A DNA stretch of 64,000 nucleotides from a virus. Taxonomy: Duplodnaviria > Caudoviricetes. Below, piece by piece: positions 1,817-25,096 of the stretch. The position numbers were made by a program, and so were the translations under genes. Location: IMG/VR virus record IMGVR_UViG_3300011559_000001, positions 1-64,000 of that record; one strand, written 5' to 3'. How positions within the stretch are numbered: the stretch's first letter is position 1; the number at the start of each line of letters is the position of its first letter. The notes beneath the pieces were generated by a model. That model was not told where the DNA came from and searched no databases. It saw only the letters and a program-made list of their open reading frames with translations.

Positions 1817-2596
1817 ATGATGACCAGTAAAGTCATCCAAGTCTGGCACCACGATTCACCGGGCATGCGCGTGTACGTGCGTCGTGGTTGGATCAAGCAG
1901 TTGTTTTACCCCAAGGACTTCTCGCGTGTGGGCGAACACCACCTGACTGAGAAAGAGCTGGAGCCCACCTACGCCCGTGCGTTGGAATTGGCGGAAACTT
2001 TCCATGGACTATATGAGCGCTATGCGCCGAGCGAAGGTTACACTACTCGCCCGGAGACGCGTGCGTTTAATCCCAACACGCCTAACGGACGCTTGATGCA
2101 GCGCGTTTGTCTGGCGGTTATTACAGGAGGTTTCCGTTTGAGTGACATTGCCGACGACACCGGTCCGAGTGCCGCCGACATTGTGAGTGGCTTGAGGTTG
2201 ATGCCCATTCGCGTGTTGCGCACTCCGGCCCCTGATGAACCTGTGGCTGACCCAGCTGAAGAAGTCTACCTGCGGATGCAGGTTGTACCCACCGAGGAAG
2301 AGGCGTCACTGGCGCTGAGCTTCACCGATGGCCAGTTGGTGTACATCAAGGTGGACGACAACGAGATCATCACCCCACCCGAGTTTGGCCGCATTCTGGC
2401 TGAACTGGGCGACTACGTGAATGCTCAGTTGTTCCAAGCCCAGTCTCAATTGCGGGTGACCGCCGCTGAGTTCTGGTGGAAAGACGAGGTGACCCCCGAC
2501 CTCGAACATCGCTCGCGGCAGCAGATTACCCCGTCCATCTGGGAGTCCTTGCTGTTCGATCCGACTTTCCAAGCGCAGTCCAAGATCCAGCGTTAG
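1817..2596 (+). CDS. hypothetical protein
   Basis: 259-aa ORF in operon orientation. Confidence 0.65.
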   Translation: MMTSKVIQVWHHDSPGMRVYVRRGWIKQLFYPKDFSRVGEHHLTEKELEPTYARALELAETFHGLYERYAPSEGYTTRPETRAFNPNTPNGRLMQRVCLAVITGGFRLSDIADDTGPSAADIVSGLRLMPIRVLRTPAPDEPVADPAEEVYLRMQVVPTEEEASLALSFTDGQLVYIKVDDNEIITPPEFGRILAELGDYVNAQLFQAQSQLRVTAAEFWWKDEVTPDLEHRSRQQITPSIWESLLFDPTFQAQSKIQR

Positions 2597-2633
2597 CCAA
2601 TCCTATGGAGGCTGTCCCTCCTAAGGAGTCCCG

Positions 2634-2870
2634 ATGCTTTCTCTGTTGTTTTCCCTGTTCCTGATCCTGCTGCAAGTGGCGGGTCTGCTCGTACTGGCCC
2701 TGGGGCTGTTTGTGGTGTTCCACATCGCACGTCCTCAGAAGGAGCCGGCTGACACCAGCAACCGGATCAACAAGATCCGTCTGATCTGGTTCTGCCTTAC
2801 TCGCGAAAATTTGTTCGTCGATGTGTTCCCGTGGCTCAAGCACGACGAGCTGGATAACGTCACCAAGTAA
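2634..2870 (+). CDS. small membrane protein
   Basis: N-terminal hydrophobic helix, AAGGAG RBS. Confidence 0.7.
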   Translation: MLSLLFSLFLILLQVAGLLVLALGLFVVFHIARPQKEPADTSNRINKIRLIWFCLTRENLFVDVFPWLKHDELDNVTK

Positions 2871-4212: not shown

Positions 4213-4518
4213 ATGTACGGATTGTTCAATGCTCTGGCCTGGATCTGGATTGTTGTCCTTGGCTTCATCCTGATCGTGGGTGTGTTTTCTATCCTTCGTC
4301 GGACCTTCGTGACGGGCTATCCCAGGTCGCTCACGCTGCGTATGGCGACCTTCGGTCAGCTCTACGGTAAGAGCTGGGTCATTCCGGCACTGGCTGTGGT
4401 GGCCGCACTGACGGTGGATTTCGATCCGGACCTGCAGTGGTGGGTGGTGGTTACTTCGGTGAGCTTCATTGCCGTGCGCTTCATCAACGTCTTTGCCGTC
4501 AAGGTGGTCAATCCATGA
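4213..4518 (+). CDS. membrane protein
   Basis: About three hydrophobic segments. Confidence 0.65.
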   Translation: MYGLFNALAWIWIVVLGFILIVGVFSILRRTFVTGYPRSLTLRMATFGQLYGKSWVIPALAVVAALTVDFDPDLQWWVVVTSVSFIAVRFINVFAVKVVNP

Positions 4519-4580
4519 GCAACAGTGCCTATGAGGCGTTCACGTTAGGTGACTAGAGTCACTTAACCTGGAGCCTGAAG

Positions 4581-4916
4581 ATGTCCCGTACGACCCGTCG
4601 CACCCACCACAAAGCTGCTTGGCACTACCACGGTAACTTCGACCGCTTCACCGGTCGTTGGTGGTCTGAAGCAGCTGCCGAACGTAAGGGCATGACCCTG
4701 CGCGAACTCTACGACACTTACATCCGTCACTACCACATGGATCGTGACGGTGAAGGTCGTCGTACGCCGCCGCGTTGGTTCCGCAACATGTACGGCAGCC
4801 GTTGGGTCCGTCATCGCAATCGCGCCCTGATCATCCGTCACCTGCAGGATGACAGCTTTGATTGCCACCTGCCCGAGCCCTTCAAGGGCCGTGCGGGTTT
4901 CCGTATCTACCTCTAA
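4581..4916 (+). CDS. basic hypothetical protein
   Basis: GGAG RBS; Arg/His-rich. Confidence 0.6.
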   Translation: MSRTTRRTHHKAAWHYHGNFDRFTGRWWSEAAAERKGMTLRELYDTYIRHYHMDRDGEGRRTPPRWFRNMYGSRWVRHRNRALIIRHLQDDSFDCHLPEPFKGRAGFRIYL

Positions 4917-5266
4917 CCCTGAGTACCCTGCTGATGTGGAAGCGTGTGCGTTCTTTCATCCGTGGTTGGCGTGAGCGCCACAACGGCATGACCACCAAGT
5001 ACAAGTGCGATTCCCGTCAGCAGGCCTACGACAGCGGCCGCGAGTGGGGACTGCGTTTTTCGTGGAGGCGTTACTGATGGATACCTCGCAGGATTGGGAC
5101 AGCCCCGATCCATCGAAGGGTCCGTACACAGACGAACCTCCCAACCGTCCCCGATCCCCTCGAACTGAAGAAAGGAACTGAGCATGTGTAACATGCCGAT
5201 TGGTCTCCTACTCATGGGCAGCCCCTGCACGCGACGTGCAGGGGGCCCTGATAGAGGAAACCATGT

Positions 5267-8777: not shown

Positions 8778-10908
8778 TCACCACCCCCACAGTACGACCG
8801 TAGATCAGATCTTCCAAGCTCATCGCCGGCAGATCTTCCCACGCATGGAAGGACTCAAAGGACGGCATCGGCTGGTCCATGATTTCATTGAGCACCGACT
8901 CGAACTCATTGACCTGGTCATCCAACTGCATGCTTTCCAACGAGGAGATATAGCCGTCCATCGTCTTGGCCGCCTCACCGTTGTAGTCAGCGCCCATGAT
9001 CAAGGCCACCTGCTCACGGGACCATTCCAGAATCTCCTTGGAGCGGGTGGAGATATTGGGATCCTTGCCGGTGTCCAGATACACGAACACGAACTTGACC
9101 GGGGTATCCTGACCCAGACGATCCACACGGGCCTTGGCCTGTACCAACTCGTGGTCGCGGAAAGGCACGTTCAAGAAGATCTCTTGGTCGGCCATGATCA
9201 GCGGCACGGCCGTGGACAGCGAGGGGAACGTAGCCACCAGCGGATTGACCGTGGCGTCATGTTCAAAGGCACCGACGTTGGCCGCCAGGTCCTTGTTGGT
9301 TTCACCGAACACCAGCATCGGGTTCTTGCCTTGCGCCTTGAAGATCTCACTGCAGCGCTTGACCACTTCGACGTAGCTGGTAAACACCACCGTCTTCTTT
9401 TCAGAAGCAGACATGATGTCCTCAAAGTCGATGTAGTCCAGCATCTCCACATGCAGGCGCGAACGGGCCTTGCCCAAGACCGAACCCAACGCCTCGCCCA
9501 TCACTTTCAGGTTGACGTACTTGATCACGGACTTGGCCGACTTGAACAGCTTCTTGTCCTCGTTGGACAAGGTCGGCATGATGTTCTTCAGCTCGTAGTC
9601 GTTGGCCATCTTCATCTCGTCCTTGGTGTAGCGAGGATCGGGATTCTTCTTGACCACTTCCACGTTCTGCTTGTACTGCTTGAACTCAGCCCACTGGTCA
9701 CTTTGCAACGTCTGGCTGAAGTGAGCCAACGCGTTGTTGTAGGTGTCCTCGTAGGTCTTGTAGTTCTTCTTGTAGTACTCCATGCGCTGGGCAATGAACT
9801 CTGCCATCTGCGAGGAGATCGCCTCCAGCGTGTAGTCCTGTCCGTTAGGCAGCTTGACCGAGACGGTCTTCTCGGTAGGCTTGTTGTTGACCACCGCTGC
9901 CTTTTCCACCTTGTAGGTGATAAAGCCCATGCGGTTGCGCAGGATGTCCAGTGCACGTTGGGCGTTGACACCAAACACCTGCTTGAAGCTGGCTTCAGCG
10001 TCACGGTCAAACAGCGGGTCAATGGTCTTGAGCAGCGGAATGCACTCACCACCCAGCGCCTTGATCGGCGTACCGGAGGCCCAGATGATGTTCTGGCTCT
10101 TGCTGGATTCACACAGGCCAATGAAGGCGTTGGTACGCTGGGACTTCATGTCGTTGAAGTTGTGCGACTCATCCAAGATGATCGTCACATTGCCGTTGAG
10201 CTGTCGAGCCACGGCGATGGTCTTCTCCAACGACTCGAAGTGACACAGCAAGAAACGCTCACGGGCGTAGGGCTTGTTCTCACCGGCGATCCACACCTTC
10301 TGCGGGACCTTGTACTCGGGTTTCTCCCGACCGCGCAGGGCTTCGTTCCAGACGCGGTAGACTGCGTTCTTGGGCGAGACGATGATCACATAGTCCGAGT
10401 GGACCATCTCGGCGATCATCAAGTCAGTCAGGGTCTTACCCGAGCCGGCTGCTGCCGACAGCAAGAAGCCCTTCAGGCCCAGCTCGGAACGGCCCTTTTC
10501 GTAGATGTCGAAGAAAGCGGTCTGGTGGGGCAGCGGGGTCTTGTGGAAGAGATTGAGCTTACCGCGATCCAAGATCTTGGCATGCTCCTTTCCTTCGGCC
10601 AGATTGGCCAGCCAGGTGTTTTCTTCCAGCTGCTTGATCGCTTGCAAGATCGTGTTGCGGCTGGTGAAGTTGCGGCGGTTCTTGAGCAGGCGCTGGAGCA
10701 TGTAATGCACTTCCAACGCGTAGAACAGCTTGAACTCGATATGGCGACGCCCGAAGGCAGTGAACATGAACTTGTTGATCTTCGAGGTGGACCACGTCTC
10801 CTCGATGTCACGCGCCAGCGAAGCGGTGGCCACGCCACCGATCTGGATCTTGTCGTTCTTTTGCTCGACGTACACAATGCCGAGCATGCGCTTGAAAAGT
10901 TGTGCCAT
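8770..10908 (-). CDS. SF2 (SNF2/DEAD-like) helicase
   Basis: AAGSGKT Walker A, IILDESH, ASGTP, QAKARVDRLGQ. Confidence 0.9.
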   Translation of the reverse strand: MAQLFKRMLGIVYVEQKNDKIQIGGVATASLARDIEETWSTSKINKFMFTAFGRRHIEFKLFYALEVHYMLQRLLKNRRNFTSRNTILQAIKQLEENTWLANLAEGKEHAKILDRGKLNLFHKTPLPHQTAFFDIYEKGRSELGLKGFLLSAAAGSGKTLTDLMIAEMVHSDYVIIVSPKNAVYRVWNEALRGREKPEYKVPQKVWIAGENKPYARERFLLCHFESLEKTIAVARQLNGNVTIILDESHNFNDMKSQRTNAFIGLCESSKSQNIIWASGTPIKALGGECIPLLKTIDPLFDRDAEASFKQVFGVNAQRALDILRNRMGFITYKVEKAAVVNNKPTEKTVSVKLPNGQDYTLEAISSQMAEFIAQRMEYYKKNYKTYEDTYNNALAHFSQTLQSDQWAEFKQYKQNVEVVKKNPDPRYTKDEMKMANDYELKNIMPTLSNEDKKLFKSAKSVIKYVNLKVMGEALGSVLGKARSRLHVEMLDYIDFEDIMSASEKKTVVFTSYVEVVKRCSEIFKAQGKNPMLVFGETNKDLAANVGAFEHDATVNPLVATFPSLSTAVPLIMADQEIFLNVPFRDHELVQAKARVDRLGQDTPVKFVFVYLDTGKDPNISTRSKEILEWSREQVALIMGADYNGEAAKTMDGYISSLESMQLDDQVNEFESVLNEIMDQPMPSFESFHAWEDLPAMSLEDLIYGRTVGVVNG

Positions 10909-19233: not shown

Positions 19234-19331
19234 CCTACGCCCCAGCCCCTTCGGGGGCTGGGGTTGTCGGGGACCTCTTTTGTTTTGGTTATCCTATGGA
19301 AAGATCGTCTATCACGCAACGGAGAAGGGAT

Positions 19332-20012
19332 ATGATTCCCATCGCATTGGTCCCCATCCTGAAGAAGGTATGGGATCTGGTCACACTTCGCAACATCGCG
19401 TACTTGGTTGGCCTGATCGTTCTGGTCTTTGCCATGTACAAAGGCTACAACTGGGTCTACGACCGCGGCGCCTCTTCCCGCGATCAGGAAGTGGTTGATG
19501 CCCAAAAGGCACAGAAGGAAGCCGAGGACAAGTACGCAGAGTACAAGGGCACCTACGACAACTGGGTGGCCAACACCAAGAAAGCCCAAGAGCAATACCT
19601 GAAGGAACAACTGGCCGACGTCGCTGCCCGACAGACGCGGCTGGAAGAAGCCGAGAAGGCTGCTCGCAACAAACCCACCACCATCAAAGAGGTTATCAAG
19701 TATGTCCCTGCCCAAGTGGATGCTACTTATCGTCTGCCTGTTGGTCTTGTCCGCCTGTACGGGGAAAGTCTCCAAGGACGACCCGCCGGCTCCGATTCCT
19801 TCGTTGAGCTTCCCCAAGGCCTCGGACTCAATGTTGGAGACGCGTCCGGCCTTGCTGTGTCCGAATTCGGACGCATCGCAGCTTTCAACAACGCCGAGTG
19901 TGTCGTGCGTGGAGCGGTGATCCTGGAATGGCAGGACTGGTACAAGGTCAACAAGGCCAAGTTCGATGTCCTGCAGAAAGAACAAGCTGATTCGGCTCCC
20001 AAGGAAAAGTAG
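19332..20012 (+). CDS. i-spanin (Rz-like)
   Basis: N-terminal TM helix, coiled coil, KEVIKYVP motif; embedded lipoprotein gene. Confidence 0.75.
   Translation: MIPIALVPILKKVWDLVTLRNIAYLVGLIVLVFAMYKGYNWVYDRGASSRDQEVVDAQKAQKEAEDKYAEYKGTYDNWVANTKKAQEQYLKEQLADVAARQTRLEEAEKAARNKPTTIKEVIKYVPAQVDATYRLPVGLVRLYGESLQGRPAGSDSFVELPQGLGLNVGDASGLAVSEFGRIAAFNNAECVVRGAVILEWQDWYKVNKAKFDVLQKEQADSAPKEK
19702..19920 (+). CDS. o-spanin (Rz1-like lipoprotein) embedded in +1 frame
   Basis: Signal peptide with lipobox LSAC, Pro-rich mature region, GAGG RBS. Confidence 0.75.
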   Translation: MSLPKWMLLIVCLLVLSACTGKVSKDDPPAPIPSLSFPKASDSMLETRPALLCPNSDASQLSTTPSVSCVER

Positions 20013-22607: not shown

Positions 22608-22841
22608 TCACCGCGAGCGCCGGCGGGTAGGCTTGCTCTGCAGGTGCGCCAAGGGGTAATCGCGCAGGAAACGATCCGCTGCTTCCTTGTCGAGAAAACG
22701 TCCCAACACTACCCCAGTCTTCTTCTTGGTAACGCGAAGTGGCAGTTCGCTGTTTTCAGCGACTTCGAATTCGACCAACTTGAGTTTCTTCTTGAAGTCT
22801 TGCGCCCTGTCGTAGGCAAATGGTTCGACTGCTGTCGACAT
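22608..22841 (-). CDS. hypothetical protein
   Basis: 77-aa ORF convergent on terminator. Confidence 0.55.
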   Translation of the reverse strand: MSTAVEPFAYDRAQDFKKKLKLVEFEVAENSELPLRVTKKKTGVVLGRFLDKEAADRFLRDYPLAHLQSKPTRRRSR

Positions 22842-22944
22842 TGTGGTGGCCCCCTGGTTGTTGCGTTTGTGCGATTAGTTGAAGTGATGGTTCCTCTCGG
22901 GACCATAGGATTACGTATTTTCTTACATACGCTTGTGATGATGT

Positions 22945-23585
22945 GGTGAAGGCCGCCCACTAGACGATTTCCCTGACGATTTCTTCAAAGACCGGCCTGC
23001 ACTCGCGTGCTTACGATCCGCCACCTCTCGAGGCGCATCTCCAAAGACACACTTCGAAACCGGCCTCGTCCTGCAAAGGACGGGCTACCCAACTTTGGGT
23101 CGGAGCACGCAATTATCGAATGTCTGGAGTTGCAGTCCTTGGCCTCGAGCCCTGACAGATGACTCCTTACTAAGCACTCCCCCACTGACGGCTAGGGGAA
23201 TAAAGTGCACGTTGAGTTGTGGATCCCTGCGAAGATCTGCACAACTCTTAACCGTCCGGCTGGCATCGCAGTCCAGCAAGTTGTACGCGCTCAGTAAGCC
23301 TCACGAATGCTTAGCTCAACAGGGCGAGCTTTCAAAGGTGCACAGTCTGTCCTACGAGTGGAAAACCCCAGGGGCTTCGGTCGCGGGGACTCACGAGGCG
23401 TCGGTCGATACCGATGGCAGGCTGGTAACGCACTGGAAGATGGAGTGAGTGAAAGCTTTAGGGCAGTACGTGTGCAGCCTTCAGTGGTTTCCTTCGTCGG
23501 AAGAGCTCCCGACTTGCGAGACTACTGCGGGAAGTACATGGGTAGGAAAGGGGTGTAGGAGCCAGGGCTGGGCGCCCTGGCTCTT
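22945..23585 (+). ncRNA. large structured non-coding RNA candidate (~630 nt)
   Basis: No credible ORF; more than 10 nested helices including long-range pairs with G-U; terminal hairpin GAGCCAGGGC..GCCCTGGCTC. Confidence 0.7.
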
Positions 23586-23650
23586 ATGCTGTCGAGTATG
23601 TAAAAGGTAACTGGCCAGTGCCAGAGTGTAGACCTTAAGAGAGTACGATC

Positions 23651-24253
23651 ATGTTCGACATCGCCGCCCACCGTGGGAAGAACCTGGCACCCACCGAAGA
23701 AAACTTCGGTTCGCTGGTGAACCAGTTGAAGGAAAAGCTGTTGGTGGAAATCACTGCCGTGGTGACCGAAAGTGACGGTGACCATCCGATCTACAACGAC
23801 GCGCTGCGTAAGAGATGCGACCTGTACGAAGGGGTGTTTGGCGGTGGTTTGGCGTTCATGGCCTTCGAGCTGATCTCCGGCTACAAGCTGGTACTGTTCG
23901 ATGCACCCAGCTGCTGTGCCACGCATTACTTCGAGTTCCCCAAGGACGACATCGAGCACGTGGTGGGTTCGCAGTTCCTCGCCCTGTTTGCCGACCCCAA
24001 CTCGGAAACGAGGGAAGAGGATGAAGAATGGCACAACGTCAAGGAATCGATCACCATGGCGCTGGTCACCAACCGCCTGATGGTGCGCTTCCCGGTCTAC
24101 AACGAGCACAACGGCTATTACAGCGGCATTGACCCGGTGCTGGCCATTATCGATGACCAGGGTCGTTACGTGGGCCATGGTAATGTTCCGGCGTTCAACC
24201 TCGAAACGCTCGCCGCCACGGTCCCGTCCATCCCCTCGCCGATGGCGCCGTAA
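23651..24253 (+). CDS. hypothetical protein
   Basis: 200-aa ORF; YNEHNGYYSG motif. Confidence 0.7.
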   Translation: MFDIAAHRGKNLAPTEENFGSLVNQLKEKLLVEITAVVTESDGDHPIYNDALRKRCDLYEGVFGGGLAFMAFELISGYKLVLFDAPSCCATHYFEFPKDDIEHVVGSQFLALFADPNSETREEDEEWHNVKESITMALVTNRLMVRFPVYNEHNGYYSGIDPVLAIIDDQGRYVGHGNVPAFNLETLAATVPSIPSPMAP

Positions 24254-24571: not shown

Positions 24572-25096
24572 ATGTCCGAAGAAGAAATCCCACCGGCCGA
24601 AATCAAGGTCCCCTACGACCAGTTCCAGATCAGCTCCTATATCAGCTGGGTCGAGTGTAACGGTTACAAGCCCTACCTGCACATCGACACCGGTCATCCC
24701 GGTGTGCGCCTGCCGCTGGCGTCGTCCTCGAAAGAAATGGAGGTCATCAACGTCTCCACCTCGGCCGTGTACAAGATGCAATGGTTCGATGATCGTCTGG
24801 AGTTCAACGCCCGCTTTGGTGGTCGTGACTACCGGTTGGTGATCCCCTATCACGCCATCAAGGTCGTGTCCTTCGCCGGCACCCAGACGGCCGTACCGAC
24901 GCCGTGGGTGAACCTGCGCATCCGTGCCGAACCCGGCACTGAGCCCACCCAGACTTCCAGTCCGGTGGAAGCGCCGCCGCGCGAAGACGTCAAGGAGGCT
25001 CCGCAGGAAACCAGTGCACCGGAGAGCGATGCGCCATCGCCACCGTCCAACGTGCGCACTGTGGACTTCCGTGCTCCGCGCAAGCCCAAGTCGTAA
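24572..25096 (+). CDS. sspB: stringent starvation protein B (ClpXP adaptor) homologue
   Basis: W..CNG.KPYL, INVS.SAV, FNARFGG, IP..AI motifs; disordered tail. Confidence 0.85.
   Translation: MSEEEIPPAEIKVPYDQFQISSYISWVECNGYKPYLHIDTGHPGVRLPLASSSKEMEVINVSTSAVYKMQWFDDRLEFNARFGGRDYRLVIPYHAIKVVSFAGTQTAVPTPWVNLRIRAEPGTEPTQTSSPVEAPPREDVKEAPQETSAPESDAPSPPSNVRTVDFRAPRKPKS

Follow-up and report, generated by a model that had tools for sequence, protein, structure and literature searches.

The gene-free gap between positions 22842 and 23650 of the phage DNA analysed here almost certainly contains a genuine structured RNA, and comparison with relatives in other phages indicates that its gene is non-coding, folded, read from the plus strand and independent of its neighbours. 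The RNA appears to represent a real and previously undescribed family common to a group of giant Xanthomonas and Burkholderia phages. We think it probable that this is a free-standing gene for a discrete RNA of about 650 nt, with a compact core and an arm, that acts as a homodimer and may serve as a scaffold or decoy. An earlier sequence-only reading had noted the lack of a credible gene and a series of pairing motifs, all of which are present, and had proposed a large structured plus-strand RNA, reminiscent of ROOL and GOLLD and perhaps of a new class; the comparative evidence agrees with this and points to a class outside Rfam. Its fold stood in part, with several helices upheld and some of the long-range ones lost, and it missed the pseudoknotted core and the palindromic loop described below.

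The window (the whole stretch of DNA analysed, 64,000 nt) covers positions 1 to 64,000 of a virus record of 310,882 bp. The major capsid protein shares 87% identity with that of RTH11, 81% with LucasX, 46% with Xoo-sp14, 38% with FLC9, and about 32% with Goslar and phiKZ-type phages; these identities mark the source as a phiKZ-related jumbo phage, and by sequence it is a 311-kb phage close to Xanthomonas phage RTH11. The RNA and its surroundings are organized as follows.

22608–22841, minus strand: gene for a 77-aa basic protein (53 clusters), divergent from the RNA and its usual, non-obligatory neighbour.
22908–22948, no strand assigned: conserved block separating the RNA from the divergent 77-aa gene and containing the probable phage promoter(s).
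22940–23590, plus strand: predicted gene for the large structured non-coding RNA, about 650 nt, single copy in the genome.
23651–24253, plus strand: 200-aa gene that bounds the gap downstream.
24572–25096, plus strand: SspB-like gene, 0–3 genes downstream of the RNA in most syntenic loci.

Comparisons of the 77-aa protein with Pfam, PHROG and solved folds gave no match (best Z 3.9), and without a family or fold, synteny is its sole tie to the RNA; the gene is absent beside the RNA in Xoo-sp14. We note that the protein has an arginine-rich tail and a confident small alpha/beta model (pLDDT 84), with a 64-aa structural match in a viral library that may correspond to the gene close to sspB in Xoo-sp14. 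The SspB-like gene lies directly downstream of the RNA in two metagenomic loci (L140 and L136), and in Xoo-sp14 it is more than 110 kb away. No tRNA gene of this genome lies within 21 kb of the RNA. Elsewhere in the window there is an Rz-like spanin gene (19296–20012, plus strand) with an embedded out-of-frame ORF (19702–19920) resembling a lipoprotein of the Rz1 type, and DNA conservation across the overlap is unusually high. Positions 1–480, upstream of a tRNA-Gly gene, contain several tRNA-like stretches with T-loop motifs that are called by neither ARAGORN nor Rfam and are perhaps decayed or unusual tRNAs. Two tRNA calls have unusual anticodons, Ile aat at genome positions 310688–310764, outside the window, and Phe aaa at 10164–10239 of L136.

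Relatives of the RNA were recovered by several routes. BLAST found the region in RTH11, at 82% identity with 95% query coverage, and also in LucasX, in which the 3′ part of the RNA is among the few stretches of a 12.8-kb neighbourhood that can be aligned as DNA. Syntenic loci from metagenomic jumbo phages were collected with the neighbouring proteins as bait, and most of these have a gene-free gap of 670–850 nt after the 77-aa gene. Eleven distinct versions align to this copy at 52–87% identity, while the neighbouring genes differ. More distant versions were sought with two covariance models, R1 for the core and R2 for the 3′ domain; the last helix of R2 is two columns out of register, such that its matches rest on the other helices. 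Both models match in order and on the same strand within unannotated gaps in Xoo-sp14, L136, L143 and L144. The L144 and L145 versions were found in this way, L146 and L147 have an R2 match only (E 5e-4), and the Xoo-sp14 matches are weak (E 0.06 for R1 and 0.003 for R2), ordered within a 900-nt unannotated gap far from sspB. FLC9 matches the core model at E 4e-6, with the long arm read by eye.

Altogether there are 17 distinct versions (this copy and 16 others) of about 360–670 nt, and all those of known source are jumbo-phage records. Four cultured phages carry the RNA (RTH11, LucasX, Xoo-sp14 and Burkholderia phage FLC9), and it is annotated in none of them. In three lineages (L136, L143 and FLC9), though not in this genome, the RNA follows a tRNA array: in FLC9 it comes directly after three tRNA genes, which are absent from the record annotation (L162 1842–2100, minus strand), and in L136 and L143 the conserved upstream block comes first, then the array and then a short form of the RNA, about 360 nt long. 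Between this block and the array there is also a folded leader of about 270 nt (L136 9718–9990; L143 2660–2920, minus strand), ending in an apparent mini-core in which loop C pairs with two downstream stretches and hairpins D and E are missing; it may be another, shorter relative of the RNA. L143 has only the 5′ half of the tRNA-Asn of L136, followed by an insertion with a long ORF (about 2200–2670, minus strand).

No convincing model match was seen in pEa_SNUABM_54, pPa_SNUABM_DT01, Goslar or a Phikzvirus. Given the narrowness of the models, the lack of a match in these four distant phages is no proof of absence. In Ralstonia phage FLC4-3B, a 770-nt gap close to sspB was rejected as a candidate, as it holds an unannotated ORF and the best model match falls within an annotated gene; by eye this ORF (L149, about 4400–5027) resembles a homing endonuclease. 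Pattern scans of viral contigs returned nothing or the L143 contig alone, and a metagenome scan with a 14-mer gave chance matches only.

Conservation of the RNA is not that of a coding sequence. The longest internal ORF (117 aa, 23095–23448) is lost in the homologs, indels among these are not multiples of three, and no ORF is common to the 11 aligned versions. The structural organization of the RNA, all on the plus strand, is predicted as follows.

22945–23165: variable 5′ domains, with a multi-branch structure at 23005–23110 and a helix 23127–23133/23160–23166.
23166–23298: conserved core, in which helix 23166–71/23293–98 encloses hairpins C (23174–23208), D (23212–23251) and E (23259–23277).
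23184–23191: loop of hairpin C, forming two pseudoknot helices, 23188–91/23252–55 and 23184–86/23279–81.
23228–32/23266–70: kissing pair between loops D and E.
23299–23465: variable domain; about 56 nt of it (approximately 23350–23410) are optional and present only here and in RTH11.
23469–23540: long conserved hairpin (the arm), with a 2×2 purine internal loop and an apical stem 23496–23500/23509–23513.
23501–23508: apical loop of the arm, two unpaired A residues followed by the self-complementary hexamer GAGCUC (23503–23508), the proposed homodimer kissing site.
23552–23590: closing hairpin of 17 bp ending in TTATGC, a generic terminator-type element of the phage.

The core and the 3′ domain (arm plus closing hairpin) carry most of the comparative signal. 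Across 11 sequences 89% of the cells in the core are paired and 17 of its 45 pairs show two-sided change, and in the 3′ domain the values are 97.4% and 14 of 45, with the arm itself 95–100% paired and showing two-sided change at seven pairs. None of 500 shuffles reached the pairing or covariation score of the core and none equalled the 3′ domain, with slid controls 32–45% and 38–48% paired, respectively; these shuffle and covariation counts ignore phylogeny and draw on only about 17 versions which, being related by descent, make the shuffle counts overstate significance. The two pseudoknot helices are invariant or nearly so and complementary in the 11 sequences, and the D/E kiss is UGCGA/UCGCA in all 11, such that their covariation comes from Xoo-sp14 and FLC9: in readings by eye the pseudoknot ACGG/CCGU becomes ACUG/CAGU in Xoo-sp14, and the kiss is AAUGC/GCAUU there and UUGCG/CGCAA in FLC9. 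Positions 23254–58 have a competing partner at 23282–86, and the core also has invariant unpaired nucleotides. The 5′ domains are mostly absent from L140, L136, L143, Xoo-sp14 and FLC9 and are dispensable in several lineages. Xoo-sp14 has about 350 nt of extra hairpins between the arm and the terminal hairpin (L154 2500–2870) that are absent from the other versions.

Of the helices read from this copy by eye, 23482–23491/23518–23527 (95% of cells paired, six pairs with two-sided change) and 23166–23171/23293–23298 (86%, three two-sided) are well supported, and the hairpins at 23214–23247 and 23496–23513 survive comparison. The outermost long-range pairings fare worse: 22997/23472 forms only three to four of its six pairs in four close homologs, and in place of 23006/23465, 23006–23011 more likely pairs locally with 23104–23109. 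The candidate helix 23059/23419 could form six to eight of eight pairs in close homologs, each side also having a competing local partner, and the candidate 23149/23320 would comprise about 4 bp. A pairing of the 5′ end (22947–22960) with 23470–23483 was rejected, as it fails in distant homologs.

Judged by itself, the folding energy of this copy counts as weak evidence (z = −1.66 for the plus strand and −2.82 for the minus strand, 20 shuffles each), whereas three homologs are more stable than shuffled controls on the strand equivalent to plus (z of −4.2, −3.7 and −4.8). That G-U pairs favour the plus strand is borne out in the 3′ domain by 87 G-U cells vs one A-C cell, a count that is partly circular because the structure was drawn on this strand; the oriented terminal element also points to the plus strand. 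The region is 54–55% G+C.

The most distinctive feature is at the tip of the arm, where a 5-bp stem carries a loop of one to two unpaired bases followed by a hexamer. Five aligned versions have GAGCUC here and eight have GUGCAC, whereas L144 and L145 have ACCGGU and Xoo-sp14 has CUGCAG, so there are four states, all of them self-complementary; in FLC9 the same position has CCGG at its centre, bordered by U and G. By comparison, a self-complementary loop of this kind occurs in 2.0% of 2588 comparable genomic hairpins, and of 135 random double changes only 9 leave such a palindrome intact. The exception is L146, with a 160-nt insertion at the arm tip and no clear hexamer palindrome. Because a palindromic hexamer cannot pair within its own loop, pairing between two molecules is the simplest reading, and the RNA very probably forms a homodimer through it; the calculated duplex energy is about −8 kcal/mol. 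Palindrome switching has served as evolutionary support for the inter-chain bridges seen by cryo-EM in OLE and GOLLD (PMC12286853), and the HIV-1 dimerization loop, in which GUGCAC is a natural variant, has the same layout of purines followed by a hexamer (PMC5874298).

Both ends of the proposed transcript have candidate signals. The block at 22908–22948 is kept in all 13 syntenic loci read, with a similar AUGUGG start in Xoo-sp14, and probably contains promoters for both directions; a search of this region for a sigma-70 site found none. The 5′ end of the RNA would be near 22936–22945, and transcription as a separate RNA is strongly suggested. The closing hairpin, placed at 23559–23583 in the sequence-only reading, is present and 98% paired, but it is longer than described and belongs to a generic terminator-type class: 45 of the 117 genomic TTATGY sites close a strong hairpin, vs 0 of 179, 3 of 73 and 1 of 102 for control motifs. 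It likely marks the 3′ end of the RNA. The approximately 45 strong hairpins followed by TTATGC or TTATGT genome-wide, often flanked by the complement (e.g. at window positions 2905, 7656, 8288, 12481, 25105, 28101, 36643 and 37101), probably act as terminators or processing signals of the phage. Among the sequencing runs listed, no RNA run was seen to contain the sequence; contigs from three wastewater runs that are labelled RNA-Seq, but flagged as probably DNA, gave only scattered 150-nt pieces and are uninformative on expression.

We propose that a phage RNA polymerase would start in the conserved block near 22940 and that the transcript would stop or be trimmed at the TTATGC hairpin to give an RNA of about 650 nt. 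Comparison shows a core in which two pseudoknot helices and a kiss between loops hold three hairpins together, and in addition the long arm, whose tip is strongly predicted to pair with the same tip of a second molecule to form a homodimer or a larger symmetric assembly, as OLE, ROOL and GOLLD do. The least certain step is the last, in which the RNA, as a stable scaffold or decoy, may bind proteins of the host or the phage that function in translation or in defence against phages; this role is suggested by the position of the RNA at tRNA arrays in three lineages and by the analogy with GOLLD and ROOL, and we regard it as plausible at somewhat below even chances. More tentatively, the RNA could form a protein-free dimer or higher particle with a DIS-like arm and a catalytic or ligand-binding pseudoknot core, acting in a step specific to this phage branch, for which tRNA maturation, translation takeover and defence evasion are similarly tentative candidates.

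The strongest alternative is that the RNA is a new ribozyme, which might for instance cleave itself or process phage tRNA transcripts, with the dimer arm as an accessory. It earns this place because the core is compact and doubly pseudoknotted with invariant unpaired bases, and the positions straight after tRNA arrays, together with the shortened core look-alike that precedes the array in L136 and L143, are also in its favour. We nonetheless consider it unlikely, as no Rfam ribozyme matches, no RNase P or group I/II signature is seen by eye, and tRNA genes are distant from the RNA in this genome. A cis-regulatory leader or riboswitch controlling the downstream genes (for a DUF7448 protein and the SspB-like protein) would account for the frequent proximity of sspB, and pseudoknotted cores are common among riboswitches; it is nevertheless improbable, since the RNA ends in a generic terminal hairpin with no rival fold seen, the next gene varies from locus to locus, Xoo-sp14 shows no linkage of the RNA to sspB, and a switch has no need of a symmetric kissing loop.

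More improbable still is an element acting as DNA, such as an origin or a packaging or recombination site whose inverted repeats mimic RNA helices. There is a single copy per genome and palindromic hexamers can be protein sites, yet G-C to G-U changes are tolerated, the loop-loop and pseudoknot pairs covary, the region is not AT-rich, and the palindrome changes in sequence while its symmetry stays, the opposite of what is seen at a protein site. Least probable of all is a tmRNA-like RNA, or one coding for a small protein, that acts together with the SspB-like neighbour. SspB works on proteins that tmRNA has tagged, and there is the 117-aa ORF inside this copy; against this, ARAGORN finds no tmRNA here even at a relaxed threshold and there is neither a tRNA-like domain nor a conserved frame, so this reading is already largely refuted. 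The cis-regulatory, DNA-element and tmRNA-like roles are each contradicted by these tests, and we return to the free-standing, dimeric non-coding RNA as the preferred reading.

Rfam gave no match at the gathering threshold, at E≤10 for the region or at E≤5 for seven homolog loci, and thus the RNA is not GOLLD, ROOL, OLE, RNase P or tmRNA. The absence of RNase P, tmRNA and intron hallmarks was likewise confirmed by Rfam, ARAGORN, the alignment and the intact flanking genes. One- and two-piece tmRNAs, sought because of the SspB-like neighbour, were rejected with ARAGORN (default and relaxed) and Rfam and by the lack of a conserved tag ORF; RNase P RNA because, besides Rfam being negative for the region and the seven loci, the CR I and CR V P4 motifs are absent from the alignment; and group I and II introns because the flanking genes are intact and variable and Rfam is negative. 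A retron, DRT or DGR RNA was rejected as there is no RVT_1 match in the complete genome, and self-cleaving ribozymes (HDV-like theta, twister, pistol, hatchet and glmS) on the absence of an Rfam match, a model comparison only. The LucasX genome paper does not mention a non-coding RNA (PMC9009655), and a 2026 review notes that phiKZ expresses some non-coding RNAs and nothing further (PMC13282480). Our search of the articles available to us found no description of the RNA.

To our knowledge few natural RNAs form homo-oligomers by themselves, OLE, ROOL and GOLLD among them, and work on their functions has been held back in part by a shortage of tractable lytic systems. The family described here is unrelated to these three by Rfam, can be as short as about 360 nt and makes a sharp prediction of a palindrome-dependent dimer, and because it occurs in four cultured phages with culturable hosts, its expression, assembly, structure and knock-down phenotype are directly testable.

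ROOL and GOLLD are large ornate RNAs of phages and prophages that form RNA-only nanocages (PMC12286853). Like them, the new RNA is phage-borne and several hundred nucleotides long, has extensive covarying structure with multiple pseudoknots and kissing loops, and lies near tRNA arrays in some genomes (L136, L143 and FLC9); like GOLLD it combines a variable 5′ part with a conserved 3′ part. It differs from both in having no sequence or covariance-model match to them, in its helix layout and short minimal form, and in being so far confined to one branch of phiKZ-related jumbo phages. The symmetric kissing loop common to ROOL, GOLLD and OLE is present here as a sequence signature, and since a single symmetric contact is predicted, we predict a dimer and not a cage. 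OLE, a homodimer of about 600 nt, has a palindrome in L9.3 that switches among GGCC, GAUC and AGCU (PMC12286853). Whereas OLE is chromosomal in Bacillota and membrane-bound through Oap proteins, the new RNA has no Rfam match and its palindrome is 6 nt long with one to two unpaired 5′ bases; the two are alike in size and in a loop palindrome that switches sequence yet stays self-complementary. The SL1 dimerization initiation site (DIS) of HIV-1 has the palindromes GCGCGC and GUGCAC with flanking purines (PMC5874298). The new RNA lacks the 3′ flanking A and is a non-genomic RNA of a DNA phage, and the resemblance is convergent, not homologous, but both present unpaired purines followed by a G+C-rich self-complementary hexamer, and eight versions carry the very GUGCAC of HIV-1.
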